DNA from: Eledone cirrhosa
Taxonomy: Eukaryota
Length of the DNA: 64,000 nt
Assembly: GCA_964016885.1 (NCBI GenBank)
Contig: OZ024740.1
Span: 206,522,001 to 206,586,000, forward strand
Reading direction: 5' to 3'
The translations under genes were made by a program, and so were the position numbers. How positions within the stretch are numbered: position 1 is the first letter of the stretch; every line of letters starts with the position of its first letter. A model generated the notes under the pieces. That model made no database searches. It had not been told where the DNA came from and saw only the letters and a program-made list of their open reading frames with translations. Below are positions 14,480-49,459 of this stretch, piece after piece.

Positions 14480-17221
14480 CTATAAATCATTGTTTATATC
14501 AAAGGGAAATGTAATTCAATTTCAAAGGGTTTTTATTTGTCATAGGACACAGATCTAATTCGCTGTTTTTTGTTTTTCATCTCTTTTGGAAAGTCACTAC
14601 TATATAAACCAATCAGAATCATTCATGGTCAGTAGTGACCATTTGCCCTTTATTTTTCTTGATTTGGTCCAGTCAATATTTATAGTTCCACTAAAAAAAT
14701 AAATATATAGATATTTTTAGAACGACCTTTGACCATCAGTCAATTCTAGGTTTTCTTTGTCTTTAAACAGTTTTTCCATTGTCATATTATATATGTAGAA
14801 TCAACATATTGTTTAGTTAATTCGTCTGATGTTTCTGCTAGTCTTCCTATATTTTCATCTTACAGTTTTGTTTTGTTGTGTTATGAGGTATTTACTACAC
14901 TTTGATCTCTTTATTGTTTTACTTCATTCAGTTTTTCTATTTAAAGAAACTCAGTAGGAAAGCCTCTCACACACAGTGTAGCAGCGTTAAGATAATTAAT
15001 GTCATTCTTTTCAATCTATCTACCAAAGACAGCAACAAAGCTGTTAAATAGTTTGAATTTGAAATTTATTTTGGAAAACAAACAGCAAGAAACATTTATT
15101 CCATGTCATTCTTTAGAGAACACAAAAGAATATTAATGCCCCAGAGACATCAATCAAATAGTGAAAGAATGGGATTTTTCACTTATCTTCCTTGGATTAT
15201 CTGCAGTTACGTTCTCTATATCCAAACATCCGTTTCTATTTTGTACGAATGAAATTAGCCTCCACCATTATTGCCTGAGATTTCATTGCACTATTCTGTA
15301 CCTGATACCAAAGTTGTATTATTGATCTACTTGCTGTGTCAGACAGAGTTTTAATTACTAATACTAGTAATGGAGGAGAAATAAAGAATAAATGTCAGCT
15401 TGATACAATTAATTATACAGGCTGGTTCATAAAGGAACTATAGCGATAATCCCTTTCTAATGATAAGGAGGGATTTCCTTCTTGGCTTTATTCTGTGTTG
15501 TTTTCAATGAAGTATTTATATTCTGCTTGTACTGAGTGCAATATTTTAACCAATAAACCCCACTTTAGTTTATCTCTGCAAATATTGTTTTGGGGGTTTA
15601 ATTCTACAATTTGGAAGCCTTGTCAAAAGGATAATGGAATTTGTGGAGAATTATTTTGCTCCCGTAGATGTAAGTAAGCATTATTTTTACATTGTAACCA
15701 TAACTTTTATATCTTAACACACACACATACACTGACAAACGGAGTACTTGGGTATGACAGTGTTGTTAGGGAGTACTATGTCTGTAAAGAAGAGGGCACC
15801 TTTTTTCCTCAATGACAATAAAAGATGTGTGAAAGTGATTCAATAAAGAGTGTTAGTTCAGTCATTCGCTCCATCTTGTGCTTGTTTCCATATTGGAGCA
15901 GTCCACTGCCAGTGTTCTCCATTGATTCTGTATTCTTCTGTGCTTCCTTCCATGTCTGTTGGTAGTTGTCTGTTTCTCACAAAGGCTGTCAACTGACACT
16001 GGAACAGAACTAAAGCCAATGGTCGTTACTGTCTTCTCCTTTCTCCTGTTGGTGACCAGTCACAATCTTTGTTCCATTTCTTAAGACTTTTTAAAATTAA
16101 ATACAAACAACATTTGTCTTTAACAAGGCCCCATTCTCTCTAACTTTCTAAGTAAAAAAACTAAATGGAAAAGGATTTCCATCAGTTTTGATGATGAATA
16201 TTCTAATTGTTTGATCAAGTGAATAGTCTGTTCATTGTTTATAGTTTAAATTGCTGAGTATTCAACAGGCATTTGTATCCTTAATGTAATTCTCAGAGAG
16301 ATTCAGTGTGGCACTGCATATGATAAGGTTGGTCCTTTAAATTGCAAGTACAAACCATCTGACTTGGCTTTCACATTTTCTCTTTACTCAGTTTTACTTG
16401 CAAGGCTTTAGTTGGCTCAAGGCTATAGTAAAAGAGATTTGTCCAAGATGCCTAACAATGGGATGGAACTTAAAACATCATGATTGCAAAGCAAACTTTT
16501 GAACCATTTGGTCATTTCTGGGTGTAAATGAATGGATTATGTAAAAAGTTCAGATCACGTATTAGGATGTGAGATAAGAATGATTTAGTATGCAGGTTGG
16601 TGACGACAGAGGTTGCTCCCTAGCCTTCTTCCTTCTGTTTTTGAGACAATTACACAAGACATCAGATTTGAATATCCAGTCCATGCTAGCGTGGAAAAAT
16701 GGATGTTAAATGGTGATGAATTTAAATATCCACGAGAGTTTCTGTATGCTGATTACCTAGCTTTTATTGTATAAATTTTCTTGTGTTGTAAGAAGTGACT
16801 AAAAGGGTTTAATCAGAAAGGGCATCTGTCTGAAGTACATTCCAACCCATGAAAGTCCCGTCCAACCAATGATGTTGATAATGAAACTAATAAACTTCAG
16901 AGGATTTGAATGTGAGAACATTAAAAAAATATTAAAGGTTAACTTGGCAAAGACTAAGAAACTGGAAAAGACCACTGAAATATATGTAAAAAATTAATGT
17001 TGCTGATTAGGATGATCTGGTATTAAGGAAGAAGTGCGGGAGGGTGGGGGTCACAACTAATTGATGATGTTGATTAGGCATAAATCTTATATATGCTTCA
17101 ACAATTTTATCTTGTGTTATGAATGAGTTTCCTAAAATACTTGCCAAGAACCACTGCCAAATGAATATTATGATAAAGTATTGAATGTAAATAACATAAA
17201 TAATGATATTAATGATAATGA

Positions 17222-18210: not shown

Positions 18211-18330
18211 TTAATAATAATATTTTCCATTTATCTAGTTTGGTTTGGGTTACATGTTGAATGAAGCTGTTCTTTATATTCAAATTCATTGCTAATTTAG
18301 GAAGAACCTTTCAATAAGTCTTTATCTGTT

Positions 18331-19040
18331 GCTCAATATCTTGACCACCGAAGTAAGATGATGTATAGCTCAATATCTTGACCACTGAAGTAAGATGATG
18401 TATAGCTCAATATCTTGTCTACTGAAGTGGGGTGATGTATAGCTCAATATCTTGACCACTGAAGTAAGATGATGTATAGCTCAATATCTTGACCACTGAA
18501 GTAAGATGATGTATAGCTCAATATCTTTACCACTGAAGTAACATGATGTATAGCTCAATATCTTGACCACTGAAGTAAGATGATGTATAGCTCAATATCT
18601 TGTCTACTGAAGTGGGGTGATGTATAGCTCAATATCTTGACCACTGAAGTAAGATGATACATAGCTCAATATCTTGTCTACTGAAGTGGGATGATGTATA
18701 GCTCATTATCTTGACCACTGAAGTAAGATGATGTATAGCTCAATATCTTGTCTACTGAAGTGCGGTGATGTATAGCTCAATATCTTGACCACTGAAGTAA
18801 GATGATGTATAGCTCAATATCTTGACCACTGAAGTAAGATGATGTATAGCTCAATATCTTGACCACTGAAGTAAGATGATATATAGCTCAATATCTTGTC
18901 TACTGAAGTGGGGTGATGTATAGCTCAATATCTTGTCTACTGAAGTGGGATGATGTATAGCTCAATATCTTGACCACTGAAGTAAGATGATGTATAGCTC
19001 AATATCTTGACCACTGAAGTGAGATGATGTATAGCTGAAT
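18331..19040. repeat. 37-bp minisatellite, ~19 copies
   Basis: Unit gctcaatatcttgaccactgaagtaagatgatgtata, with a variant tgtctactgaagtggggtg. Confidence 0.95.
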
Positions 19041-19234: not shown

Positions 19235-19913
19235 TTTGACAGTGTTTTATATGATGAAGTTTGACTGACAGGTTCTATATGATGAAGTTTGATTGACAGG
19301 TTAAATATGTGGTTTGATTGACAGGTTAAATATAATGAGGTTTGATTGACAGGTTCTATATGAGGTTTGACTGACAGGTTCTATGAGGTTTGATTGACAG
19401 GTTCAATATAATGTTTGATTGACAGGTTCAATATAATGAGGTTTGATTGACAGGTTCTATATGAGGTTTGATTGACAGGTTCAATATAATGAGGTTTGAT
19501 TGACAGGTTCTATATGAGGTTTGATTGCCAGGTTTGATTGACAGGTTCAATATGAGGTTTGATTGACAGGTTCAATAAAATGAGGTTTGATTGACAGGTT
19601 CTATATGAGGTTTGATTGACAGGTTCAATATAATGAGGTTTGATTGACTGGTTCAGTATAATGAGGTTTGATTGACTGGTTCAGTTTCATGAGGTTTGAT
19701 TGACTGGTTCAGTATAATGAGGTTTGATTGATGGGTTCTATATGAGGTTTGATTGACAGGTTCAATATAATGAGGTTTGATTGACTGGTTCAATATAATG
19801 AGGTTTGATTGACTGGTTCAGTATAATGAGGTTTGATTGACTGGTTCAGTATAATGAGGTTTGATTGATGGGTTCTATATGAGGTTTGATTGACAGGTTT
19901 CATATGAGGTTTG
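19235..19913. repeat. ~25-28-bp minisatellite
   Basis: Unit gaggtttgattgacaggttc(aatataat/tatat). Confidence 0.95.
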
Positions 19914-20251
19914 CTTGCTAATTTATAAATTAATGTGTATATAACTGGTATGTTTTCTCCATGAAAATATGTGAAAAATGTTCTGCCTTATATATTGAAC
20001 CAACAAAACTTCAGTTCAAAATATAATTCACTGTAAATATTGTATGTTCAATAGAGGTCAATGTTTTAGTTATATATTATTGTTTAAGCTCTGGTCAGCT
20101 CTAATCCAGCAGATCTAGAGTCAAAGATCTTGCAGCTGTGATCATCTCATCTTATTTTCAGGCATATTATATCCAGAACTGCAGGGTGGGATTTACAAGA
20201 GATTAGGTTGCTATTTTTAGCTGGCCGAGCAACTGTATTAGTTGTTTGTTA

Positions 20252-23224: not shown

Positions 23225-24000
23225 CCCTCTTATTTCTGCCATGCAACACTTGGCATCAAACCTATCAAGTGCAAGTTGGAGATCATTTTCTGTTGATTTA
23301 AGTAACACCATGTCATCTGCAAATTCCAGCTGACGGATTTTTACACATGCCAGTTGTGATACCACTTGCAACCCGGCTGTGCATGTCAATCCTGTTCATG
23401 AAAATAATGAACAGGAGACGTGACACTATGCACACTTGATGGAGACCAACTCCTATATTGAATGGTTTCAATTTAGCACCCTTTATCTGAACACAAATAC
23501 TTGGACATCCATATAGAGACATCAAGGTAGCAAGAAGCTGACCATCGATCCCATATGCCTGCACAACTGTCCATAGCATGTTCCGAGGATAGTAGTCAAA
23601 TGCCTTTTTGAGGTCTACAAAACAAGAATATACCTCTTGGCAATACTCCCACAATTTCTCGAAGACCTGCAGCAGTGAATATTTGGTTGGTTGTGCTGTG
23701 TCCAGGGCGAAATCTGCACTGTTCATCAACTAATTTGGACTCTGCAGTCTCCTGCATCTCTTTACCAGGCACTTAGCATAGACTTTACCAGGGAGGCTTA
23801 ACAAGATACCTCTGTAATTGGAGCAATCCCTCTTGTCTTCCTTTTTGAAAATTGGGATTATCACACCCAATTACCATTGCTTTCCAGTGATCCAGGCCAC
23901 CTGGCACACATGGGGCAATCAGAGAATACCTTCTCTATTTAAGGCTTTTAACATCTCGGGCTGGATTTCATCTTCCCCAGCAGCCTTGCCACATTTGAGT
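23225..24000 (-). mobile_element. Decayed LINE (RT fragment, different RTE-like family)
   Basis: Frameshifted pieces CFVDLKKAFD, GVGLHQVCIVSRLLFIIFM, LEFADDMVLL. Confidence 0.8.
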
Positions 24001-25677: not shown

Positions 25678-27035
25678 TTAAAACATCTCTCCACTTTTGA
25701 TAGTGATGTTTCTCCTTTTAAACCTCTCGCCGCTTTTGATAGTGTTGTCTCTACTTTTTAAACCTCTCTCCATCTTTGATAGTGATGTTTCTCCTTTTAA
25801 ACCTCTCTCTGCTTTTGATAGTATTGTCTCTACTTTTTAAACTTCTTTCCATCTTTGATAGGGTTGTCTCTACTTTTTAAACCTCTCTCTACCTTTTAAA
25901 CTTCTCTCCACCTTTGATAGTGATGTCTCTACCTTTTAAACCTCTCTCCATCTTTGATAGGATTGTCTTTACCTTTTAAACCTCTCCCCACCTTTGATAG
26001 TGTTGTCTCTACTTTTTAAACCTCTCTCCATCTTTGATAGTGATGTTTCTCCTTTTAAACCTCTCTCTGCTTTTGATAGTATTGTCTCTACTTTTTAAAC
26101 TTCTTTCCACCTTTGATAGGGTTGTCTCTACTTTTTAAACCTCTCTCTACCTTTTAAACTTCTCTCCACCTTTGATAGTGATGTCTCTACCTTTTAAACC
26201 TCTCTCCATCTTTGATAGGATTGTCTTTACCTTTTAAACCTCTCCCCACCTTTGATAGTGTCTCTACTTTTTAAACCTCTCTCTATCTTTGATAGTGATG
26301 TTTCTCCTTTTAAACCTCTCTGCTTTTTATAGTATTGTCTCTACTTTTTAAACTTCTTTCCATCTTTGATAGGGTTGTCTCTACTTTTTAAACCTCTCTC
26401 TACCTTTTAAACTTCTCTCCATATTTGATAGTATTGTCTCTACCTTTCAAACCTCTCTCCACCTTTGATAGGGTTGTCTCTACTTTTAAACCTCTCTCTA
26501 CTTTTGATAGTGTTGTCTCTACCTTTTAAACTTCTCTCCTTTTAAACCTCTTTTCACCTTTGATAGGGTTGTCTCTCTTTTTAAACCTCTCTCCATCTTT
26601 AATAAGGTTATGTCTACCTTTTAAACCTCTCTCTACTTTAGATAGGGTTGTCTCTTCTTTTGAAACCTCTCTCCACTTTTGATAGTGTCGTCTCTACCTT
26701 TTAAACCTCTCTCCACCGTTGATAATGTTGTCACTACCTTTTAAACCTCTCTTCTCTACTTTTGATAGGGATGTCTCACCTTTTAAACCTCTCTCCACCT
26801 TTGACAGTGTTGTCACTACCTTTTAAACTTTTCTCCACTTTTGATAGGGTTGTCTCACCTTTTAAACCTCTCTCCATCTTTGATAGTGTTGTCTCTCCTT
26901 TTTAAACCTTTCTCCACCCTTGATAGGGTTGTCTCTCCTTTTTAAACCTTTCTCCACCCTTGATAGGGTTGTCTCTCCTTTTTAAACCTCTTTCCATCTC
27001 TGATAGTGATGTCTCTACCTTTTAAACCTCTCATC
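25678..27035. repeat. ~39-bp pyrimidine-rich minisatellite, ~35 copies
   Basis: Unit cttttaaacctctctccacctttgatagtgttgtctcta; ends ~70 bp before the first visible RagC/D coding exon. Confidence 0.95.
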
Positions 27036-27105
27036 CACTAATTTTTTATCCTGTTTCTAAACTTTCTTTATCTTCCATTGACAAAGTGTTTCTCTCTCCT
27101 TGCAG

Positions 27106-27245
27106 TCCTATGAAGATGATGCTGGTGGCGATTTTATGGTCGGATCATTCCAAGATTTTGGATATGGTACAGTTGACCCGGAGACGGAGGCTACAACTTC
27201 AAGTTCGGATGAGAAACCACGGATTCTGTTGATGGGTCTTCGAAG
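27106..27245 (+). CDS. RRAGC: Rag GTPase RagC/D, first visible coding exon (start ATG probably on an upstream exon)
   Basis: ttgcag| SYEDDAGGDFMVGSFQDFGYG...EKPRILLMGLR |gtcagt; resembles RagC DFGYG and KPRILLMGLRR. Confidence 0.9.
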
Positions 27246-27685: not shown

Positions 27686-27780
27686 AAGTGGCAAGTCCTC
27701 CATACAAAAAGTTGTGTTTCATAAAGTATCCCCGAATGAGACCCTGTTCCTCGAAAGCACTAACAAAATAGTAAAAGATG
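27686..27780 (+). CDS. RRAGC: RagC/D exon (P-loop, switch I)
   Basis: ttcag| [32 protein letters not shown] |gtaggt. Confidence 0.97.
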
Positions 27781-28692: not shown

Positions 28693-28826
28693 ATATTTCC
28701 AACAGTTCATTTGTCCAGTTTCAAGTATGGGATTTGCCCGGTCACATAGATTTCTTTGATACCTTATTTGATGTTGACAAAATATTTCGTGGTTGTGGTG
28801 CCTTGATTTTTGTCATAGATGCGCAA
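28693..28826 (+). CDS. RRAGC: RagC/D exon (G3/switch II)
   Basis: cacag| [45 protein letters not shown] |gtgagt. Confidence 0.97.
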
Positions 28827-28992: not shown

Positions 28993-29192
28993 GATGAATA
29001 TGTGGAGGCGCTAGACAAACTAAATATGACAGTGACGCGGGCACATAAAATTAACCCTGAAATCAAGTTTGAGGTATTCATTCATAAAGTGGATAGCTTG
29101 TCTGATGATCAAAAGATAGAATCTCAGCGAGATATTCACCAGAGGGCTAATGATGATCTTGTTGATGCTGGATTTGAAGGGATCTACTTGAG
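28993..29192 (+). CDS. RRAGC: RagC/D exon (G4, HKVD)
   Basis: cctag| [14 protein letters not shown]...[31 protein letters not shown]...IYL ag|gtaaga. Confidence 0.97.
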
Positions 29193-29477
29193 GTAAGAGC
29201 AACACTGTGACAAATGTAAAATTAGACATTTGATGTCAGACGGTCTTACACAGATACAGTTTATAATATACACAAACATAGTTTATTTATACACAGATAC
29301 AGTTTATATGTATATTCCCTGTTAATACATTTATTACCTTATTTTTAATGAAAGACACTGCCTATAATTTACAAATAATTTTGAAAATAATCAAGAATTT
29401 GGAGGGATTTAGTAATACAAGTAATTTTCTCATTATTAAGCTGATGTTCAGAACATAAGTCTACAAAAGTTTTTACA

Positions 29478-32400
29478 TAGTTTCTATCTGACCAGTATCT
29501 ATGACCACTCTATACAGTTTCTATCTGACCAGTATCTATGACTACTCTATACAGTTTCTAACTGACCAGTATCTATGACCACTCTATACAGTTTCTACCT
29601 GACCAGTATCTATGACCACTCTATACAGTTTCTACCTGACCAGCATCTATGACCACTCTATATAGTTTCTAACTGACCAGTATCTATGACTACTCTATAC
29701 AGTTTCTACCTGACCAGCATCTATGACTACTCTATACAGTTTCTAACTGACCAGCTTCTACGATCACTCTATACAGTTTCTACCTGACCAGTATCTATGA
29801 CCACTCTATACAGTTTCTAACTGACCAGCTTCTATGACTACTCTATACAGTTTCTACCTGACCAGCTTCTATGACCACTCTATACAGTTTCTAACTGACC
29901 AGCTTCTATGACTACTCTATACAGTTTCTATCTGACCAGCTTCTATGACCATTCTATACAGTTTCTACCTGACCAGCATCTATGACCACTCTATACAGTT
30001 TCTACCTGACCAGCTTCTATGACCACTCTATACAGTTTCTACCTGACCAGCTTCTATGACCACTCTATACAGTTTCTACCTGACCAGCATCTATGACCAC
30101 TCTATACAGTTTCTACCTGACCAGCTTCTATGACCACTCTATATAGTTTCTACCTGACCAGTATCTATGACCACTCTATACAGTTTCTATCTGACCAGTA
30201 TCTATGACCACTCTATACAGTTTCTATCTGACCAGTATCTATGACCACTCTATACAGTTTCTATCTGACCAGTATCTATGACCACTCTATACAGTTTCTA
30301 CCTGACCAGTATCTATGACCACTCTATATAGTTTCTACCTGACCAGTATCTATGACCACTCTATACAGTTTCTACCTGACCAGTATCTATGACCACTCTA
30401 TACAGTTTCTATCTGACCAGTATCTATGACCACTCTATACAGTTTCTATCTGACCAGTATCTATGACCACTCTATACAGTTTATATCTGACCAGTATCTA
30501 TGACCACTCTATACAGTTTCTAACTGACCAGTATCTATGACCACTCTATACAGTTTCTACCTGACCAGTATCTATGACCACTCTATACAGTTTATATCTG
30601 ACCAGTATCTATGACCACTCTATAGTTTCTATCTGACCAGTATCTATGACCACTCTATACAGTTTCTATCTGACCAGTATCTATGACCACTCTATACAGT
30701 TTCTATCTGACCAGTATCTATGACCACTCTATACAGTTTCTATCTGACCAGTATCTATGACCACTCTATACAGTTTCTATCTGACCAGTATTTATGACCA
30801 CTCTATACAGTTTCTACCTGACCAGTATCTATGACCACTCTATACAGTTTCTATCTGACCAGTATCTATGACCACTCTATACAGTTTCTATCTGACCAGT
30901 ATCTATGACCACTCTATACAGTTTCTATCTGACCAGTATCTATGACCACTCTATACAGTTTCTAACTGACCAGTATCTATGACCACTCTATACAGTTTCT
31001 ATCTGACCAGTATCTATGACCACTCTATACTGTTTCTATCTGACCAGTATCTATGACCACTCTATACAGTTTCTATCTGACCAGTATCTATGACCACTCT
31101 ATACAGTTTCTAACTGACCAGTATCTATGACCACTATACAATTTCTACCTGACCAGTATCTATGACCACTCTATAGAGTTTCTACCTGACCAGTATCTAT
31201 GACCACTCTATACAGTTTATATCTGACCAGTATCTATGACCACTCTATACAGTTTATATCTGACCAGTATCTATGACCACTCTATACAGTTTATATCTGA
31301 CCAGTATCTATGACCACTCTATACAGTTTCTACCTGACCAGTATCTATGACCACTCTATACAGTTTATATCTGACCAGTATCTATGACCACTCTATACAG
31401 TTTATATCTGACCAGTATCTATGACCACTCTATAGTTTCTATCTGACCAGTATCTATGACCACTCTATACAGTTTCTACCTGACCAGTATCTATGACCAC
31501 TCTATACAGTTTCTATCTGACCAGTATCTATGACCACTCTATACAGTTTATATCTGACCAGTATCTATGACCACTCTATACAGTTTCTATCTGACCAGTA
31601 TCTATGACCACTCTATACAGTTTATATCTGACCAGTATCTATGACCACTCTATACAGTTTATATCTGACCAGTATCTATGACCACTCTATAGAGTTTCTA
31701 TCTGACCAGTATCTATGACCACTCTATACAGTTTCTAACTGACCAGTATCTATGACCACTCTATACAGTTTATATCTGACCAGTATCTATGACCACTCTA
31801 TACAGTTTATATCTGACCAGTATCTATGACCACTCTATACAGTTTCTACCTGACCAGTATCTATGACCACTCTATACAGTTTCTATCTGACCAGTATCTA
31901 TGACCACTCTATACAGTTTATATCTGACCAGTATCTATGACCACTCTATACAGTTTCTACCTGACCAGTATCTATGACCACTCTATACAGTTTATATCTG
32001 ACCAGTATCTATGACCACTCTATACAGTTTATATCTGACCAGTATCTATGACCACTCTATAGAGTTTCTACCTGACCAGTATCTATGACCACTCTATACA
32101 GTTTCTAACTGACCAGTATCTATGACCACTCTATACAGTTTATATCTGACCAGTATCTATGACCACTCTATAGAGTTTCTAACTGACCAGTATCTACGAC
32201 CATCTATACAGTTTCTACTTGACCAGTATCTATGACCACTCTATACAGTTTATATCTGACCAGTATCTATGACCACTCTATACAGTTTCTATCTGACAAG
32301 TATCTATGACCACTCTATACAGTTTATATCTGACCAGTATCTATGACCACTCTATACAGTTTCTAACTGACCAGCATCTATGACCACTCTATACATTTTC

Positions 32401-35400
32401 TACCTGACCAGCATCTATGACCACTCTATACAGTTTCTAACTGACCAGTATCTATGACCATTCTATACAGTTTCTAACTGACCAGTATCTACGACCACTC
32501 TATACAGTTTCTACCTGACCAGTATCTACGACCACTCTATACAGTTTCTACCTGACCAGTATCTATGACCACTCTATAGAGTTTCTATCTGACCAGTATC
32601 TATGACCACTCTATACAGTTTCTACCTGACCAGTATCTATGACCACTCTATACAGTTTCTAACTGACCAGTATCTATGACCACTCTATACAGTTTCTAAC
32701 TGACCAGTATCTATGACCACTCTATACAGTTTCTACCTGACCAGTATCTATGACCACTCTATACAGTTTCTAACTGACCAGTATCTATGACCACTCTATA
32801 GAGTTTCTACCTGACCAGTATCTATGACCACTCTATACAGTTTATATCTGACCAGTATCTATGACCACTCTATACAGTTTATATCTGACCAGTATCTATG
32901 ACCACTCTATACAGTTTATATCTGACCAGTATCTATGACCACTCTATACAGTTTCTACCTGACCAGTATCTATGACCACTCTATACAGTTTCTATCTGAC
33001 CAGTATCTATGACCACTCTATACAGTTTCTATCTGACCAGTATCTATGACCACTCTATACAGTTTCTATCTGACCAGTATCTATGACCACTCTATACAGT
33101 TTCTACCTGACCAGTATCTATGACCACTCTATACAGTTTATATCTGACCAGTATCTATGACCACTCTATACAGTTTATATCTGACCAGTATCTATGACCA
33201 CTCTATACAGTTTCTACCTGACCAGTATCTATGACCACTCTATACAGTTTCTATCTGACCAGTATCTATGACCACTCTATACAGTTTCTACCTGACCAGT
33301 ATCTATGACCACTCTATACAGTTTCTATACGACCAGTATCTATGACCACTCTATACAGTTTATATCTGACCAGTATCTATGACCACTCTATACAGTTTCT
33401 ATCTGACCAGTATCTATGACCACTCTATACAGTTTATATCTGACCAGTATCTATGACCACTCTATACAGTTTATGTCTGACCAGTATCTATGACCACTCT
33501 ATAGAGTTTCTATCTGACCAGTATCTATGACCACTCTATAGAGTTTCTACCTGACCAGTATCTATGACCACTCTATACAGTTTCTAACTGACCAGTATCT
33601 ATGACCACTCTATACAGTTTATATCTGACCAGTATCTATGACCACTCTATAGTTTCTAACTGACCAGTATCTACGACCATCTATACAGTTTCTACCTGAC
33701 CAGTATCTATGACCACTCTATACAGTTTATATCTGACCAGTATCTATGACCACTCTATACAGTTTCTATCTGACCAGTATCTATGACCACTCTATACAGT
33801 TTCTATCTGACCAGTATCTATGACCACTCTATACAGTTTCTAACTGACCAGCATCTATGACCACTCTATACAGTTTCTACCTGACCAGCATCTATGACCA
33901 CTCTATACAGTTTCTAACTGACCAGTATCTATGACCATTCTATACAGTTTCTAACTGACCAGTATCTACGACCACTCTATACAGTTTCTACCTGACCAGT
34001 ATCTACGACCACTCTATACAGTTTCTACCTGACCAGTATCTATGACCACTCTATAGAGTTTCTATCTGACCAGTATCTATGACCACTCTAGAGTTTCTAC
34101 CTGACCAGTATCTATGACCACTCTATACAGTTTCTAACTGACCAGTATCTATGACCACTCTATACAGTTTCTAATTGACCAGTATCTATGACCACTCTAT
34201 ACAGTTTCTACCTGACCAGTATCTATGACCACTCTATACAGTTTCTACCTGACCAGTATCTATGACCACTCTATACAGTTTCTAACTGACCAGTATCTAT
34301 GACCACTCTATACAGTTTTTACCTGACCAGTATCTATGACCACTCTATACAGTTTCTATCTGACCAGTATCTATGACTACTCTATACAGTTTCTACCTGA
34401 CCAGCATCTATGACCACTCTATACAGTTTCTACCTGACCAGTATCTATGACCACTCTATACAGTTTATATCTGACCAGTATCTATGACCACTCTATACAG
34501 TTTATATCTGACCAGTATCTATGACCACTCTATACAGTTTCTACCTGACCAGTATCTATGACCACTCTATACAGTTTATATCTGACCAGTATCTATGACC
34601 ACTCTATACAGTTTCTACCTGACCAGTATCTCTGACCACTCTATACAGTTTCTAACTGACCAGTATCTATGACCACTCTATACAGTTTCTACCTGACCAG
34701 TATCTATGACCACTCTATACAGTTTCTATCTGACCAGTATCTATGACCACTCTATACAGTTTCTATCTGACCAGTATCTATGACCACTCTATACAGTTTC
34801 TATCTGACCAGTATCTATGACCACTCTATACAGTTTCTACCTGGCCAGTATCTATGACCACTCTATACAGTTTCTACCTGACCAGTATCTATGACCACTC
34901 TATACAGTTTCTACCTGACCAGTATCTATGACCACTCTATACAGTTTCTATCTGACCAGTATCTATGACCACTCTATACAGTTTCTATCTGACCAGTATC
35001 TATGACCACTCTATACAGTTTCTATCTGACCAGTATCTATGACCACTCTACAGTTTCTATCTGACCAGTATCTATGACCACTCTATACAGTTTGTAACTG
35101 ACCAGTATCTATGACCACTCTATACAGTTTCTACCTGACCAGTATCTATGACCACTCTATACAGTTTATATCTGACCAGTATCTATGACCACTCTATACA
35201 GTTTCTATCTGACCAGTATCTATGACCACTCTATACAGTTTCTAACTGACCAGTATCTATGACCACTCTATACAGTTTCTATCTGACCAGTATCTATGAC
35301 CACTCTATACAGTTTCTATCTGACCAGTATCTATGACCACTCTATACAGTTTCTACCTGACCAGTATCTATGACCACTCTATACAGTTTCTATCTGACCA

Positions 35401-38400
35401 GTATCTATGACCACTCTATACAGTTTCTATCTGACCAGTATCTATGACCACTCTATACAGTTTCTATCTGACCAGTATCTATGACCACTCTATACAGTTT
35501 CTACCTGACCAGTATCTATGACCACTCTATACAGTTTATATCTGACCAGTATCTATGACCACTCTATACAGTTTATATCTGACCAGTATCTATGACCACT
35601 CTATACAGTTTCTACCTGACCAGTATCTATGACCACTCTATACAGTTTCTATCTGACCAGTATCTATGACCACTCTATACAGTTTCTACCTGACCAGTAT
35701 CTATGACCACTCTATACAGTTTCTATACGACCAGTATCTATGACCACTCTATACAGTTTCTATCTGACCAGTATCTATGACCACTCTATACAGTTTCTAT
35801 CTGACCAGTATCTATGACCACTCTATACAGTTTATATCTGACCAGTATCTATGACCACTCTATACAGTTTATATCTGACCAGTATCTATGACCACTCTAT
35901 AGAGTTTCTATCTGACCAGTATCTATGACCACTCTATAGAGTTTCTACCTGACCAGTATCTATGACCACTCTATACAGTTTCTAACTGACCAGTATCTAT
36001 GACCACTCTATACAGTTTATATCTGACCAGTATCTATGACCACTCTATAGTTTCTAACTGACCAGTATCTACGACCATCTATACAGTTTCTACCTGACCA
36101 GTATCTATGACCACTCTATACAGTTTATATCTGACCAGTATCTATGACCACTATACAGTTTCTATCTGACCAGTATCTATGACCACTCTATACAGTTTCT
36201 AACTGACCAGCATCTATGACCACTCTATACAGTTTCTACCTGACCAGCATCTATGACCACTCTATACAGTTTCTAACTGACTAGTATCTATGACCATTCT
36301 ATACAGTTTCTAACTGACCAGTATCTACGACCACTCTATACAGTTTCTACCTGACCAGTATCTACGACCACTCTATACAGTTTCTACCTGACCAGTATCT
36401 ATGACCACTCTATAGAGTTTCTATCTGACCAGTATCTATGACCACTCTAGAGTTTCTACCTGACCAGTATCTATGACCACTCTATACAGTTTCTAACTGA
36501 CCAGTATCTATGACCACTCTATACAGTTTCTAATTGACCAGTATCTATGACCACTCTATAAAGTTTCTACCTGACCAGTATCTATGACCACTCTATACAG
36601 TTTCTACCTGACCAGTATCTATGACCACTCTATACAGTTTCTAACTGACCAGTATCTATGACCACTCTATACAGTTTCTACCTGACCAGTATCTATGACC
36701 ACTCTATATAGTTTCTATCTGACCAGTATCTATGACTACTCTATACAGTTTCTACCTGACCAGCATCTATGACCACTCTATACAGTTTCTACCTGACCAG
36801 TATCTATGACCACTCTATACAGTTTATATCTGACCAGTATCTATGACCACTCTATACAGTTTATATCTGACCAGTATCTATGACCACTCTATACAGTTTC
36901 TACCTGACCAGTATCTATGACCACTCTATACAGTTTATATCTGACCAGTATCTATGACCACTCTATACAGTTTCTACCTGACCAGTATCTCTGACCACTC
37001 TATACAGTTTCTAACTGACCAGTATCTATGACCACTCTATACAGTTTCTACCTGACCAGTATCTATGACCACTCTATACAGTTTCTATCTGACCAGTATC
37101 TATGACCACTCTATACAGTTTCTATCTGACCAGTATCTATGACCACTCTATACAGTTTCTATCTGACCAGTATCTATGACCACTCTATACAGTTTCTACC
37201 TGGCCAGTATCTATGACCACTCTATACAGTTTCTACCTGACCAGTATCTATGACCACTCTATACAGTTTCTACCTGACCAGTATCTATGACCACTCTATA
37301 CAGTTTCTATCTGACCAGTATCTATGACCACTCTATACAGTTTCTATCTGACCAGTATCTATGACCACTCTATACAGTTTCTATCTGACCAGTATCTATG
37401 ACCACTCTACAGTTTCTATCTGACCAGTATCTATGACCACTCTATACAGTTTGTAACTGACCAGTATCTATGACCACTCTATACAGTTTCTACCTGACCA
37501 GTATCTATGACCACTCTATACAGTTTATATCTGACCAGTATCTATGACCACTCTATACAGTTTCTATCTGACCAGTATCTATGACCACTCTATACAGTTT
37601 CTAACTGACCAGTATCTATGACCACTCTATACAGTTTCTATCTGACCAGTATCTATGACCACTCTATACAGTTTCTATCTGACCAGTATCTATGACCATT
37701 CTATACAGTTTCTAACTGACCAGTATCTATGACCACTCTATACAGTTTCTACCTGACCAGTATCTATGACCACTCTATACAGTTTCTATCTGACCAGTAT
37801 CTATGACCACTCTATACAGTTTCTATCTGACCAGTATCTATGACCACTCTATACAGTTTCTACCTGACCAGTATCTATGACCACTCTATACAGTTTCTAC
37901 CTGACCAGTATCTATGACCACTCTATACAGTTTCTAACTGACCAGTATCTATGACCACTCTATACAGTTTCTACCTGACCAGTATCTATGACCACTCTAT
38001 ACAGTTTCTATCTGACCAGTATCTATGACCACTCTATACAGTTTGTAACTGACCAGTATCTATGACGACTCTATACAGTTTCTACCTGACCAGTATCTAT
38101 GACCACTCTATACAGTTTATATCTGACCAGTATCTATGACCACTCTATACAGTTTCTATCTGACCAGTATCTATGACCACTCTATACAGTTTCTAACTGA
38201 CCAGTATCTATGACCACTCTATACAGTTTCTATCTGACCAGTATCTATGACCACTCTATACAGTTTCTATCTGACCAGTATCTATGACCATTCTATACAG
38301 TTTCTAACTGACCAGTATCTATGACCACTCTATACAGTTTCTACCTGACCAGTATCTATGACCACTCTATACAGTTTCTATCTGACCAGTATCTATGACC

Positions 38401-41400
38401 ACTCTATACAGTTTCTATCTGACCAGTATCTATGACCACTCTATACAGTTTCTACCTGACCAGTATCTATGACCACTCTATACAGTTTCTACCTGACCAG
38501 TATCTATGACCACTCTATACAGTTTCTAACTGACCAGTATCTATGACCACTCTATACAGTTTCTACCTGACCAGTATCTATGACCACTCTATACAGTTTC
38601 TATCTGACCAGTATCTATGACCACTCTATACAGTTTATATCTGACCAGTATCTATGACTACTCTATACAGTTTATATCTGACCAATATCTATGACCACTC
38701 TGTACAGTTTATATCTGACCAGTATCTATGACCACTCTATACAGTTTCTATCTGACCAGTATCTATGACCACTCTATACAGTTTCTAACTGACCAGTATC
38801 TATGACCACTCTATACAGTTTCTATCTGACCAGTATCTATGACCACTCTATACAGTTTCTATCTGACCAGTATCTATGACCACTCTATACAGTTTCTATC
38901 TGACCAGTATCTATGACCACTCTACAGTTTCTATCTGACCAGTATCTATGACCACTCTATACAGTTTGTAACTGACCAGTATCTATGACCACTCTATACA
39001 GTTTCTACCTGACCAGTATCTATGACCACTCTATACAGTTTATATCTGACCAGTATCTATGACCACTCTATACAGTTTCTATCTGACCAGTATCTATGAC
39101 CACTCTATACAGTTTCTAACTGACCAGTATCTATGACCACTCTATACAGTTTCTATCTGACCAGTATCTATGACCACTCTATACAGTTTCTATCTGACCA
39201 GTATCTATGACCATTCTATACAGTTTCTAACTGACCAGTATCTATGACCACTCTATACAGTTTCTACCTGACCAGTATCTATGACCACTCTATACAGTTT
39301 CTATCTGACCAGTATCTATGACCACTCTATACAGTTTCTATCTGACCAGTATCTATGACCACTCTATACAGTTTCTACCTGACCAGTATCTATGACCACT
39401 CTATACAGTTTCTACCTGACCAGTATCTATGACCACTCTATACAGTTTCTAACTGACCAGTATCTATGACCACTCTATACAGTTTCTACCTGACCAGTAT
39501 CTATGACCACTCTATACAGTTTCTATCTGACCAGTATCTATGACCACTCTATACAGTTTGTAACTGACCAGTATCTATGACCACTCTATACAGTTTCTAC
39601 CTGACCAGTATCTATGACCACTCTATACAGTTTATATCTGACCAGTATCTATGACCACTCTATACAGTTTCTATCTGACCAGTATCTATGACCACTCTAT
39701 ACAGTTTCTAACTGACCAGTATCTATGACCACTCTATACAGTTTCTATCTGACCAGTATCTATGACCACTCTATACAGTTTCTATCTGACCAGTATCTAT
39801 GACCATTCTATACAGTTTCTAACTGACCAGTATCTATGACCACTCTATACAGTTTCTACCTGACCAGTATCTATGACCACTCTATACAGTTTCTATCTGA
39901 CCAGTATCTATGACCACTCTATACAGTTTCTATCTGACCAGTATCTATGACCACTCTATACAGTTTCTACCTGACCAGTATCTATGACCACTCTATACAG
40001 TTTCTACCTGACCAGTATCTATGACCACTCTATACAGTTTCTAACTGACCAGTATCTATGACCACTCTATACAGTTTCTACCTGACCAGTATCTATGACC
40101 ACTCTATACAGTTTCTATCTGACCAGTATCTATGACCACTCTATACAGTTTATATCTGACCAGTATCTATGACTACTCTATACAGTTTATATCTGACCAA
40201 TATCTATGACCACTCTGTACAGTTTATATCTGACCAGTATCTATGACCACTCTATACAGTTTCTATCTGACCAGTATCTATGACCACTCTATACAGTTTC
40301 TAACTGACCAGTATCTATGACCACTCTATACAGTTTCTATCTGACCAGTATCTATGACCACTCTATACAGTTTCTACCTGACCAGTATCTATGACCACTC
40401 TATACAGTTTCTATCTGACCAGTATCTATGACCACTCTATACAGTTTATATCTGACCAGTATCTATGACTACTCTATACAGTTTCTAACTGACCAGTATC
40501 TATGACCACTCTATATAGTTTCTATCTGACCAGTATCTATGACCACTCTATTTATAGTTTCTATCTGACCAGTATCTATGACCACTCTATTGAGTTTATA
40601 TCTGACCAGTATCTATGACCACTCTATATAGTTTCTAACTGACCAGTATCTATGACCACTCTATACAGTTTCTATCTGACCAGTATCTATGACCACTCTA
40701 TACAGTTTCTATCTGACCAGTATCTATGACCACTCTATACAGTTTCTATCTGACCAGTATCTATGACTACTCTATACAGTTTATATCTGACCAATATCTA
40801 TGACCACTCTGTACAGTTTATATCTGACCAGTATCTATGACCACTCTATACAGTTTCTAACTGACCAGTATCGATGACCACTCTATACAGTTTCTATCTG
40901 ACCAGTATCTATGACCACTCTATACAGTTTCTATCTGACCAGTATCTATGACTACTCTATACAGTTTATATCTGACCAATATCTATGACCACTCTGTACA
41001 GTTTATATCTGACCAGTATCTATGACCACTCTATACAGTTTCTAACTGACCAGTATATGACCACTCTATACAGTTTCTATCTGACCAGTATCTATGACCA
41101 CTCTATACAGTTTATATCTGACCAGTATCTATGACTACTCTATACAGTTTATATCTGACCAATATCTATGACCACTCTGTACAGTTTATATCTGACCAGT
41201 ATCTATGACCACTCTATACAGTTTCTATCTGACCAGTATCTATGACCACTCTATACAGTTTCTAACTGACCAGTATCTATGACCACTCTATACAGTTTCT
41301 ATCTGACCAGTATCTATGACCACTCTATACAGTTTCTACCTGACCAGTATCTATGACCACTCTATACAGTTTCTATCTGACCAGTATCTATGACCACTCT

Positions 41401-44400
41401 ATACAGTTTATATCTGACCAGTATCTATGACTACTCTATACAGTTTCTAACTGACCAGTATCTATGACCACTCTATATAGTTTCTATCTGACCAGTATCT
41501 ATGACCACTCTATTTATAGTTTCTATCTGACCAGTATCTATGACCACTCTATTGAGTTTATATCTGACCAGTATCTATGACCACTCTATATAGTTTCTAA
41601 CTGACCAGTATCTATGACCACTCTATACAGTTTCTATCTGACCAGTATCTATGACCACTCTATACAGTTTCTATCTGACCAGTATCTATGACCACTCTAT
41701 ACAGTTTCTATCTGACCAGTATCTATGACCACTCTATACAGTTTATATCTGACCAGTATCTATGACCACTCTATACAGTTTCTAACTGACCAGCATCTAT
41801 GACCACTCTATACAGTTTCTACCTGACCAGCATCTATGACCACTCTATACAGTTTCTAACTGACCAGTATCTATGACCATTCTATACAGTTTCTAACTGA
41901 CCAGTATCTACGACCACTCTATACAGTTTCTACCTGACCAGTATCTACGACCACTCTATACAGTTTCTACCTGACCAGTATCTATGACCACTCTATAGAG
42001 TTTCTATCTGACCAGTATCTATGACCACTCTAGAGTTTCTACCTGACCAGTATCTATGACCACTCTATACAGTTTCTAACTGACCAGTATCTATGACCAC
42101 TCTATACAATTTCTAATTGACCAGTATCTATGACCACTCTATAAAGTTTCTACCTGACCAGTATCTATGACCACTCTATACAGTTTCTACCTGACCAGTA
42201 TCTATGACCACTCTATATAGTTTCTATCTGACCAGTATCTATGACTACTCTATACAGTTTCTACCTGACCAGCATCTATGACCACTCTATACAGTTTCTA
42301 CCTGACCAGTATCTATGACCACTCTATACAGTTTATATCTGACCAGTATCTATGACCACTCTATACAGTTTATATCTGACCAGTATCTATGACCACTCTA
42401 TACAGTTTCTACCTGACCAGTATCTATGACCACTCTATACAGTTTATATCTGACCAGTATCTATGACCACTCTATACAGTTTCTACCTGACCAGTATCTC
42501 TGACCACTCTATACAGTTTCTAACTGACCAGTATCTATGACCACTCTATACAGTTTCTACCTGACCAGTATCTATGACCACTCTATACAGTTTCTATCTG
42601 ACCAGTATCTATGAACACTCTATACAGTTTCTATCTGACCAGTATCTATGACCACTCTATACAGTTTCTATCTGACCAGTATCTATGACCACTCTATACA
42701 GTTTCTACCTGGCCAGTATCTATGACCACTCTATACAGTTTCTACCTGACCAGTATCTATGACCACTCTATACAGTTTCTACCTGACCAGTATCTATGAC
42801 CACTCTATACAGTTTCTATCTGACCAGTATCTATGACCACTCTATACAGTTTCTATCTGACCAGTATCTATGACCACTCTATACAGTTTCTATCTGACCA
42901 GTATCTATGACCACTCTACAGTTTCTATCTGACCAGTATCTATGACCACTCTATACAGTTTGTAACTGACCAGTATCTATGACCACTCTATACAGTTTCT
43001 ACGTGACCAGTATCTATGACCACTCTATACAGTTTATATCTGACCAGTATCTATGACCACTCTATACAGTTTCTATCTGACCAGTATCTATGACCACTCT
43101 ATACAGTTTCTAACTGACCAGTATCTATGACCACTCTATACAGTTTCTATCTGACCAGTATCTATGACCACTCTATACAGTTTCTAACTGACCAGTATCT
43201 ATGACCACTCTATACAGTTTCTATCTGACCAGTATCTATGACCACTCTCTACAGTTTCTATCTGACCAGTATCTATGACCATTCTATACAGTTTCTAACT
43301 GACCAGTATCTATGACCACTCTATACAGTTTCAACCTGACCAGTATCTATGACCACTCTATACAGTTTCTATCTGACCAGTATCTATGACCACTCTATAC
43401 AGTTTCTATCTGACCAGTATCTATGACCACTCTATACAGTTTCTACCTGACCAGTATCTATGACCACTCTATACAGTTTCTACCTGACCAGTATCTATGA
43501 CCACTCTATACAGTTTCTAACTGACCAGTATCTATGACCACTCTATACAGTTTCTACCTGACCAGTATCTATGACCACTCTATACAGTTTCTATCTGACC
43601 AGTATCTATGACCACTCTATACAGTTTATATCTGACCAGTATCTATGACTACTCTATACAGTTTATATCTGACCAATATCTATGACCACTCTATACAGTT
43701 TCTAACTGACCAGTATCTATGACCACTCTATACAGTTTCTATCTGACCAGTATCTATGACCACTCTATACAGTTTCTAACTGACCAGTATCTATGACCAT
43801 TCTATACAGTTTCTAACTGACCAGTATCTATGACCACTCTATACAGTTTCTACCTGACCAGTATCTATGACCACTCTATACAGTTTCTATCTGACCAGTA
43901 TCTATGACCACTCTATACAGTTTCTATCTGACCAGTATCTATGACCACTCTATACAGTTTCTACCTGACCAGTATCTATGACCACTCTATACAGTTTTTA
44001 CCTGACCAGTATCTATGACCACTCTATACAGTTTCTAACTGACCAGTATCTATGACCACTCTATACAGTTTCTACCTGACCAGTATCTATGACCACTCTA
44101 TACAGTTTCTATCTGACCAGTATCTATGACCACTCTATACAGTTTATATCTGACCAGTATCTATGACTACTCTATACAGTTTATATCTGACCAATATCTA
44201 TGACCACTCTGTACAGTTTATATCTGACCAGTATCTATGACCATTCTATACAGTTTCTATCTGACCAGTATCTATGACCACTCTATACAGTTTCTAACTG
44301 ACCAGTATCTATGACCACTCTATACAGTTTCTATCTGACCAGTATCTATGACCACTCTATACAGTTTCTACCTGACCAGTATCTATGACCACTCTATACA

Positions 44401-45526
44401 GTTTCTATCTGACCAGTATCTATGACCACTCTATACAGTTTATATCTGACCAGTATCTATGACTACTCTATACAGTTTCTAACTGACCAGTATCTATGAC
44501 CACTCTATATAGTTTCTATCTGACCAGTATCTATGACCACTCTATTTATAGTTTCTATCTGACCAGTATCTATGACCACTCTATTGAGTTTATATCTGAC
44601 CAGTATCTATGACCACTCTATATAGTTTCTAAGTGACCAGTATCTATGACCACTCTATACAGTTTCTATCTGACCAGTATCTATGACCACTCTATACAGT
44701 TTCTATCTGACCAGTATCTATGACCACTCTATACAGTTTCTATCTGACCAGTATCTATGACTACTCTATACAGTTTATATCTGACCAATATCTATGACCA
44801 CTCTGTACAGTTTATATCTGACCAGTATCTATGACCACTCTATACAGTTTCTAACTGACCAGTATCGATGACCACTCTATACAGTTTCTATCTGACCAGT
44901 ATCTATGACCACTCTATACAGTTTCTATCTGACCAGTATCTATGACTACTCTATACAGTTTATATCTGACCAATATCTATGACCACTCTGTACAGTTTAT
45001 ATCTGACCAGTATCTATGACCACTCTATACAGTTTCTAACTGACCAGTATCTATGACCACTCTATACAGTTTCTATCTGACCAGTATCTATGACCACTCT
45101 ATACAGTTTATATCTGACCAGTATCTATGACTACTCTATACAGTTTATATCTGACCAATATCTATGACCACTCTGTACAGTTTATATCTGACCAGTATCT
45201 ATGACCACTCTATACAGTTTCTAACTGACCAGTATCTATGACCACTCTATACAGTTTCTATCTGACCAGTATCTATGACCACTCTATACAGTTTCTATCT
45301 GACCAGTATCTATGACCACTCTATACAGTTTCTAACTGACCAGTATCGATGACCACTCTATACAGTTTCTATCTGACCAGTATCTATGATCACTCTATAC
45401 AGTTTAATATCTCTGACCACTCTATTTTACTTCTATGCAGTTTCTAACTGACCAATAACTATGATCACTCTCTATATTTTACTCCTAAACAGTTTCTATC
45501 TGACCAGTATCTATGACCACTCTATA
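29478..45526 (+). repeat. ~16-kb intronic satellite, 37-bp unit, ~430 copies, derived from the downstream acceptor/exon junction
   Basis: Unit cag|tttctatctgaccagtatctatgaccactctata; identical to 45490-45526. Confidence 0.98.
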
Positions 45527-45607
45527 TTTGAAGCATTCAGCAAAGTGGTCCAGAAACTGATACCTCAGCTACCTACATTGGAAAACCTTCTGAACATGCT
45601 CATCTCT
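45493..45607 (+). CDS. RRAGC: RagC/D exon (G5 region and linker)
   Basis: aaacag| [39 protein letters not shown] |gtaagt. Confidence 0.97.
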
Positions 45608-46374
45608 GTAAGTAACTTAAAAACATTCTGGTTTGTAGCCAACACCACCAGGCAATATCTATATAGCACTTTACAACATCTAATTTAATATTAAACAGAT
45701 ATGGTATTACTGTACAATAGTTAAAAAAAAAAAACGTTTGTCTTTTCATCCTTGCACAAGTGTAGCAGTTTTTGATGGAGCAACTGTTTTTGTAGCTGGT
45801 TCTCATTTCTACATCCAACTTCTAGTGGAATTTGTCACATACGAAGTTATGCTCCTTGATACATACAGAGTTATGTCCCTTGAAATGTCTTGCTTGCCTA
45901 GTTAGAAACAGATTTATGTTGCTTTAGGTAAACAGAACAATATATATGATAAGGTTTGATCTGGTAACTATTCAAACACCTTTACTTCATAGCCCTAGTT
46001 TTCCAAATAAACCACAATGATCGTGAAGTAAATGTTCTTGATTGTTAGGCACAGGGTTAGAAGTTCAAACCTTACTACTCAAAATCAGAAAACAGCACAG
46101 CTCCTATGTCATTATGAAATATTTTTTCACGCTCAGAGTTGCTGAAGCATAGAACAAACTACCTGCATCAGTTGTTAACTGTCTGGACACTGCATCCTTC
46201 AAAACTTCCAAGCTTCCTTAAATTAGCCCTCAAAATATATGCACATATGTGTATGTGTGTGTGTGGCTGTGTGTATATCATGACTCTTACACTGTTCACC
46301 TTCCTGACATTTGTACATTATTCTATGTACTATTCATGTACCTATGATGAGTTGTAGTGCACCTGAGCACTGTA

Positions 46375-47613: not shown

Positions 47614-47756
47614 AATTCTGGTATTGAAAAAGCCTTCTTGTTTGATGTTGTCAGCAAAATATACATTGCCACCGATAGTTCACCTGTTGACATGCAGTCC
47701 TATGAATTGTGTTGTGATATGATAGATGTGGTCTTAGATATTTCCTGTATATATGG
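47614..47756 (+). CDS. RRAGC: RagC/D exon (roadblock domain)
   Basis: ttcag| [47 protein letters not shown] gg|gtaagt. Confidence 0.97.
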
Positions 47757-48200: not shown

Positions 48201-48349
48201 GTTACAGGATGATAACGAATTGAACGCATTTGATGATGAGTCTGCATCGATCATCAAACTAAACAATACAACAGTCTTATACCTTCGGGAGGTCAATAGA
48301 TATTTGGCTCTTGTTTGCATTTTACGTGAGGATAACTTCATTAAACAAG
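48201..48349 (+). CDS. RRAGC: RagC/D exon (roadblock domain)
   Basis: tgtag| LQDDNELNAFDDESASIIKLNNTTVLYLREVNRYLALVCILREDNFIKQ g|gtaaga. Confidence 0.97.
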
Positions 48350-48674: not shown

Positions 48675-48817
48675 GTATAATTAACTACAACTTTCTCTGC
48701 TTCCGCAAAGCTATCCAAGAAGTGTTTGAAGTGCGGCAAAAGATGTTGGCCTCCAAGACTGAGAATGGTACTGATCATCAGGTGCTCAATGGTATTGCCG
48801 TCAACAAAGATGAATGA
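48675..48817 (+). CDS. RRAGC: RagC/D last coding exon
   Basis: accag| GIINYNFLCFRKAIQEVFEVRQKMLASKTENGTDHQVLNGIAVNKDE*; TGA at 48815-48817. Confidence 0.95.
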
Positions 48818-49459
48818 ATAGAGATTATGTTTCCTGCCTGTCATCTTTCTACAGACTGGCTGCTCTTCTGTATTGAGACTGCCTTCCTCATTTTAGGATC
48901 AATTTTCAACCTTTGGCTTTCTGCAACTCTTTTTCTATCTCTCTCTCTCCCACTCTCACCCACTCTCTCTCTCTCTCATTAGAATTTTAGTGATTAATTA
49001 TTATAGTTTATGTTTTGTTCTTATATTGTACACCCAACAGTCTAACATGTATGTATAATATACATAACTGAAATATTGTGTGTGTGTGTATATATATATG
49101 TTTGGCTATATCTATCTCTCTATTTGTCTGTCTGTCTATCTATGTCTGTGTAAGAGTGTATATGACTGTGTGGTTCAGTCTGTCTGTTCAGATGTGTACA
49201 CATTTAAAGGTGTTACATCAGTGTGTGTATATTAATTCTTTGTTGTAGACATCTTTCTCTCTTTTCCTCACATCCTCTCTTTATCACACACCTACACACA
49301 CATAATCTTTCTTTCTCATATAGAATCACAGACACACACATACAGATGTTCACCATCTCTTGTCGATTCACTCTCTTTTATATCAGATGCTAAATTTACC
49401 ATCAGTCTGTTCTCTGCAGTGATTTTTGTTGCAAACAAGACATTATCACTACTCATTAA

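Follow-up and report, generated by a model that had tools for sequence, protein, structure and literature searches.

Why should a gene carry several hundred copies of one of its own splice acceptors inside a single intron, and what do these copies mean for its expression? The question is raised by RagC of the octopod Eledone cirrhosa, part of which lies in the 64,000-nt stretch of forward-strand DNA analysed here (assembly GCA_964016885.1, contig OZ024740.1, positions 206,522,001 to 206,586,000; henceforth the window, in whose own numbering positions are given). One intron of this gene is filled by a tandem array of about 430 short units, each beginning like the exon that follows. We consider it probable that the array is a 'mirage', that is, a minisatellite spanning an intron-exon border, which has grown to satellite size and is tolerated without a selected function.

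The unit itself leaves little doubt about its composition. Tandem Repeats Finder (TRF) reports a period of 37 with 432.9 copies and 95% matches (29479-45471). Segmentation against the last unit yields, at the length assembled, 432 segments from 29478 to 45437: 413 of 37 nt, 12 of 35, three of 39, two of 34 and one each of 36 and 38 nt; the 38-nt one, at the end, is a long unit in degenerate form. Compared with CAG followed by the opening 34 nt of the RagC exon at 45493, the 37-nt units show a mean identity of 97.1%; 105 of the 432 segments match that sequence exactly and 426 keep the AG. Both procedures thus agree with the original prediction, made from the sequence by a model, that a 37-bp consensus made of CAG and the initial 34 nt of the following RagC exon is present in some 430 copies. 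Its description of the units as near-perfect junction copies was overstated, because only 3 nt of each unit are intronic and the pyrimidine tail is missing. It had also taken the true exon for the last unit. The terminal junction is indeed authentic, but two diverged longer units (45400-45437 and 45438-45489), both ending in a pyrimidine tail resembling that of the true acceptor, intervene after the 37-mers.

The host gene is well defined. Translated together, the eight exons in the window give 372 residues without a stop, 369 of them the same as in Octopus RagC. The first coding exon (L115:1886-1906) lies 28.1 kb before the window and matches the N-terminus of P0002 and P0005, so that intron 1 spans about 55.2 kb. 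RagC gives one match in the genome, in keeping with a single-copy gene, and the genome search found no paralogue able to buffer its loss. The array-bearing intron measures 16,300 nt, whereas the other six introns in the window range from 166 to 2,006 nt. If the array were removed, the unique 5' part (285 nt) and a tail of 16 nt would remain, which bears out the earlier estimate of about 300 bp.

As to the direction of copying, 38 residues of the exon at 45493 are identical at 36 positions to residues 215-252 of human RagC. Since this identity spans the whole repeated part, the exon is the source of the array and not its product, as had been proposed. All 295 exact genome matches of a 32-mer across the unit joint fall inside the window; no exact match outside it points to a dispersed satellite family, although this holds for exact matches only, and diverged copies may exist elsewhere. 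Judged by these matches, the array appears to be locus-specific and born in place. Within the array, runs of 25, 21 and 17 units with identical variants recur at lags of 64, 41 and 57 units, while 50 shuffles give runs of 4-6. This block structure points to recent growth by multi-unit duplication. We also considered the first unit as a candidate for the ancestral acceptor. It is not favoured: it scores only -2.3 as an acceptor (on the matrix described below), and the longer units stand at the 3' edge both here and in a second species (relative B, see below).

Tandem repeats of this kind have been described in amphioxus (Ebner et al., PMC3087553). There the BflGb6 mirage is acceptor-side, joining the 3' end of an intron to the 5' part of an exon in 3 and 6 units, Adh3 mirage units measure 10-72 bp, boundary units stay outside homogenisation and no effect on regular splicing is reported. 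The same is reported for mirages in PGBD5 and troponin C (PMC3902484). The RagC array shares with BflGb6, BflGb9 and Adh3 a border-spanning unit (here CAG plus 34 exon nt in the interior, and a 16-nt tail plus exon head in the boundary units), repeated splice signals and unhomogenised boundary units: the interior has a mean identity of 97.1% and two diverged units stand at its 3' end. The terminal unit is the authentic junction and the rest is intronic, in that 45493 alone of the 884 AGs of the intron keeps the frame open. By these structural features the array is best assigned, as an extreme member, to the known class of mirages or junction-spanning minisatellites. It differs from the amphioxus cases in copy number (3-6 units in BflGb6 versus about 430 units and 16 kb), in the absence of a pyrimidine tract from the amplified unit and in its host, a single-copy gene of the mTORC1 pathway in a mollusc.

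The human counterparts are the junction variable number tandem repeats (VNTRs) compiled by Borensztajn et al. (PMC1557585), which include F7 IVS7 (37 bp, 5-9 copies), CBS IVS13 (15-20), 6-16/IFI6 (25 pseudo-sites), LMNB2 (10-15) and PDGF (16-18). Here too the end unit is the real splice junction, and the exon-adjacent site dominates, being the only one used in F7, whereas in CBS and 6-16 the nearest two are used as well. These VNTRs repeat the donor, whereas the RagC array repeats the acceptor, at about 17 times the largest human copy number given there. Two further systems are more distant. The giant introns of Drosophila kl-3 and kl-5 (PMC6508621) likewise consist mostly of tandem repeats, but they are megabase-sized, compared with 16 kb for the RagC array, and not described in that source as junction-derived. 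Dual-specific AGGT sites (PMC10809524) resemble the array as tandem repeated splice signals, but the AG of the RagC unit is followed by TT and no donor is regenerated. In all 413 37-mers the AG precedes TTT and never GT, and ratchet points for recursive splicing are therefore ruled out. Among the cases compared here, the RagC array is the largest junction-spanning minisatellite (about 430 copies versus 3-25), acceptor-side and in a single-copy gene. A literature search lacking most subscription journals found no report of such repeats in cephalopods.

Some idea of the early state of the array comes from sequencing runs of other organisms. Run X4 of organism B (probably DNA), called relative B here, yields one 400-letter contig of depth 22 on 45360-45644. 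Compared with the window it is 25 letters shorter and differs in 12 further letters, of which six are listed between 45390 and 45465; bin depths assign 23 of the missing letters to 45397-45433 and two to 45434-45470. The boundary units appear to be common to both species, with the six listed differences and the 25 missing letters between them, and relative B seems, from these counts, to have two or more upstream units, each of about 50 bp and with the tail retained. Extra depth over the unit (about 40 compared with a single depth of 22) fits a few more copies, not hundreds. This reading of relative B is weak, as it comes from counts and depths and not from the letters themselves; the list may miss differences close to the end of the contig, and repeats that collapsed may have been dropped. 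The 3' part of the stretch used in the read comparison is a dispersed repeat that dominates the tables, and organisms C and D show small word shares that are possibly repeat-derived.

Unit origin, locus specificity and block structure can be regarded as demonstrated, and from the anatomy of the array we infer an order of events. About 50 bp, comprising the last 16 intron nt and the first 34 exon nt, would have gone through a few rounds of tandem duplication prior to the divergence from relative B, whose contig supports this. Loss of about 13 nt, the pyrimidine tract, from one inner copy would then have produced the 37-mer. Repeated multi-unit duplications, of which the higher-order blocks are the trace, would have amplified it, while the two boundary units escaped homogenisation.

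How could splicing cope with the result? Under exon definition, competition is limited to acceptors that lie no more than a few hundred bases from the donor at 45608. The spliceosome would accordingly pair this donor with a nearby acceptor, and nearly all array AGs would be ignored, since each lacks a good donor, follows a poor tract and is preceded by another AG at a distance of 19 nt. To score the sites we used an acceptor matrix built from 112 acceptor picks adjoining kinase exons in the same genome; since the picks were selected by pyrimidine content, the distribution of their own scores (median 11.2) is biased upward. Against it the 426 unit-start AGs score 1.8 on average and 3.7 at most. 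The best of the 845 GTs within the array scores 4.0, compared with 5.4 and 6.9 for the two real donors. The AG-free zone is 50 nt at the true site, where the boundary unit 45438-45489 has lost its internal AG, compared with 19 nt at an array unit; zones of 20 nt or less occur in 7% of the real picks. The same boundary unit offers CTAAC at -46 and CTGAC at -42 from the true acceptor. Scores of this kind suggest that the inner units are poor acceptors, and that the main competitor of the true acceptor is the AG before 45441 at the boundary, the top-scoring one because unit 45400-45437 carries a pyrimidine tail.

The 883 alternative AGs all lead to a stop within 44 codons, which rules out in-frame use of an upstream acceptor as well as a coding repeat. 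The commonest product, given by 79 units, is the truncated protein foreseen in the original prediction for splicing to an upstream consensus unit. Rare mis-splices would bear such early stops and be removed by nonsense-mediated decay (NMD). The stop codons are demonstrated, whereas the acceptor actually used and the absence of function are what we infer.

That such an array could persist as tolerated filler is suggested by its surroundings. It would cost little where, as in this genome, any local sequence can give rise to large tandem arrays, and the same gene provides an internal control: shortly before the window begins (L115:4146 to L113:3580), intron 1 contains a larger array, in which a purine-rich 29-mer extends over 19.4 kb, with no sign of junction origin. 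The right flank of that array matches a dispersed open reading frame remnant found at four other loci, presumably LINE-like (long interspersed nuclear element).

To see how common junction repeats are, we asked whether the 16-mer at a junction recurs, with at most two mismatches, in the adjacent 600 nt of intron. The kinase sample comprised 138 matches, from which 143 exons in 105 loci passed the local profile and 104 acceptors and 115 donors were called. The kinesin sample used 91 of 107 matches (four long intron-poor ones, the copies on contig C1636, one on the opposite strand and a few others were omitted) and, with a laxer acceptor threshold, gave 87 acceptors and 80 donors. Recurrence was found at two of 191 acceptors and four of 195 donors; by family, the figures are 0/104 and 4/115 for kinases and 2/87 and 0/80 for kinesins. 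Control 16-mers from deep within introns recur more often (17/104 and 12/115 in the kinase sample, 11/87 and 10/80 in the kinesin sample). Junction duplications here are therefore minor but regular, and rarer than deep-intron repeats. Both acceptor cases belong to one kinesin gene, of which they are near-identical copies. Together with two copies that the sample omitted, they make up L133, L139, L135 and L138, which carry, at about 975-1475 of the coding strand, acceptor-spanning units of about 120 bp in 2, 3, 5 and 5 copies. Minisatellites of at least 500 bp are present in 29 of 175 sampled loci (675 kb). Their frequency, the recurring junction duplications and the harmlessness to splicing reported for the amphioxus mirages all support a tolerated array.

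Further repeats were noted at other loci. L107, L108, L062 and L089 contain old or short donor-junction duplications behind kinase exons. L093:1375-1863 and L057:1197-1910 are arrays stopping at or near an acceptor without exon sequence, that of L093 repeating a pyrimidine tract plus TAG about 21 times.

A number of results weigh against a silent, tolerated array. The true acceptor at 45493 scores only 3.5, in the 1st percentile of the real picks and little more than the array units; for the AG before 45441 the score is 10.3. A plain pyrimidine score gives the same order for these two (9.0 and 12.0, with 7.7 for the unit). The picture of disarmed array acceptors is thus only partly borne out by the scores, because the true acceptor is weak too and the 45441 site is stronger. 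The array units also possess branch-point-like CTGAC and CTAAC at -27 and -31. Nor does RNA structure help: the predicted fold of four units is worse than all 200 of 200 shuffles (z +4.5), so that the array RNA would be unstructured and its sites not masked. Masking by structure, which we had considered as a candidate, is therefore unsupported; the predicted fold of the boundary region is unremarkable (z +1.4). In human CBS and 6-16, the repeated donor sites that lie closest are in use (PMC1557585), and the kinesin repeat units keep complete acceptors with full pyrimidine tracts, from which it follows that tract loss is unnecessary for small arrays. Finally, runs X5 (probably RNA, with the same species label), X6 and X8 have zero exon cover, and these gaps are uninformative either way.

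The likeliest alternative is a leaky or regulated poison acceptor at the boundary, whereby the AG before 45441, and not the inner 430 units, would take some of the splicing and send a share of RagC mRNA to NMD. Besides its higher score, this site has a branch-point-like CTGAC at -25, would yield an exon of normal size (167 nt) and leads to a stop after two codons; the human CBS and 6-16 cases (PMC1557585) offer a precedent. Against it stand the single-copy status of RagC with its intact frame, the crudeness of a matrix built from pyrimidine-selected picks and the A at 45447 that creates the stop, which is missing in relative B. Moreover, the junction is normal in 13 of 13 cephalopod RagC proteins inspected, although targets of NMD would escape such data. 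On balance we regard this explanation as unlikely. The early-stop product of a poison-exon NMD switch is predicted from the sequence, but as a potential only.

It is tempting to go one step further and to speculate about dosage control of the single RagC gene. The 45441 acceptor, with or without the 430 upstream units, would send an adjustable fraction of the transcripts into NMD, while the exon head, once duplicated, would provide the branch point and AG-free zone of the real acceptor. If this were true, the signalling of nutrients to mTORC1 in the animal would be tuned by the length of the allele or by the splicing state. We find this more doubtful still, and a new regulatory system is not shown on the present evidence.

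The remaining explanations have little probability. One is that the array is real but its length was inflated by assembly. Its size is known from the assembly only, and higher-order blocks could in principle be read-overlap errors; yet the window contains no N, the flanks are unique, the blocks are nested and imperfect with many distinct unit variants, and relative B shows the same repeat structure at the exon edge, all of which makes inflation very improbable. The functional options of the original prediction fare slightly worse. In a length-tunable rheostat, more units would mean more poison splicing into the array and less RagC. The AG is retained in 426 of 432 segments, every use would be a poison event, and some human tandem repeats modulate splicing (PMC10078293). 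But no good donor is close to the inner units, relative B apparently copes with few of them and F7 uses only the exon-adjacent site (PMC1557585), and we give this idea hardly any credence. A selected elongation delay or splicing-factor sink, for which one could cite 16 kb of predicted unstructured RNA with hundreds of branch-point-like motifs and the effect of satellite-filled giant introns on the expression of Drosophila Y genes (PMC6508621), is equally implausible, given that 16 kb is a quarter to a fifth of the RagC length, that intron 1 alone has 55 kb, that distances of up to 75-92 kb separate kinesin exon matches in the same genome and that nothing points to selection on length. Direct support is lacking for rheostat, delay and sink alike; they are not refuted either, the true acceptor being weak and outscored by the boundary site at 45441. 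Among the options first proposed a tolerated expansion fits best.

On the tolerated reading as on any other, the locus is a natural test of 3' splice-site choice across 16 kb in which each mis-splice is a null. Some three in four units can be told from the exon by a diagnostic base, so that junction reads would reveal which AG was used. The survey suggests that 1-2% of the junctions in this octopod genome have such duplications, and hence that the class is not confined to amphioxus and humans. Where such arrays occur, reads can also be mapped wrongly and genes misannotated.

Features of the RagC locus, in window coordinates
Feature	Position	Strand	Evidence
Three earlier RagC exons	27106-27245, 27686-27780, 28693-28826	+	Open frame; similarity to Octopus RagC P0002/P0003
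RagC coding exon preceding the array (number five if the first, outside the window, is included); phase-2 donor	28993-29192	+	Pfam Gtr1_RagA match; 100% identity to Octopus RagC over 66 aa; single genome match
Unique 5' part of the array-bearing intron (285 nt)	29193-29477	+	
Array of 431 short units (CAG plus first 34 nt of the next exon), without pyrimidine tail; higher-order blocks of 16-64 units	29478-45399	+	
Degenerate long unit: shortened exon head plus pyrimidine tail	45400-45437	+	
Boundary unit of 52 nt: diverged exon head (internal AG lost) plus pyrimidine tail; unit also in relative B	45438-45489	+	
True acceptor CAG (45490-45492), followed by the RagC exon (45493-45607); the unit derives from the first 34 nt of this exon	45490-45607	+	Human RagC alignment; Pfam Gtr1_RagA
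Three later RagC exons	47614-47756, 48201-48349, 48675-48818	+	Open frame; domain and homology matches

Intron 1 of RagC holds further repeats within the window. At 18301-19040 a 52-nt exon-like piece is followed by 19 copies of a 37-mer spanning its GTAAG donor-like end, and seven of seven exact matches are locus-specific. We regard 18331-19040 as a putative second mirage, and the exon-like piece is possibly a 5' alternative exon. Another exon-like piece, at 19241-19917, is followed by a 25-28-bp array repeating an AG-containing stretch. For a third, at 15569-15669, the search found no homologue of 15571-15669, the sole match being P0133, a repetitive protein with no matched stretch. A pyrimidine-rich 40-bp array of 1.3 kb with many TAG sites (25681-27038) ends some 65 nt short of the acceptor that belongs to the exon at 27106. 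Downstream of RagC there is an 8.5-kb TA-rich microsatellite field (52654-61122), and a 44-47-bp array of about 2.3 kb crosses the window end (62898-64000 and L111:1-1180). Open frames on the minus strand at 10640-11078 and 23345-23614 resemble what we take to be remnants of LINE reverse transcriptases.

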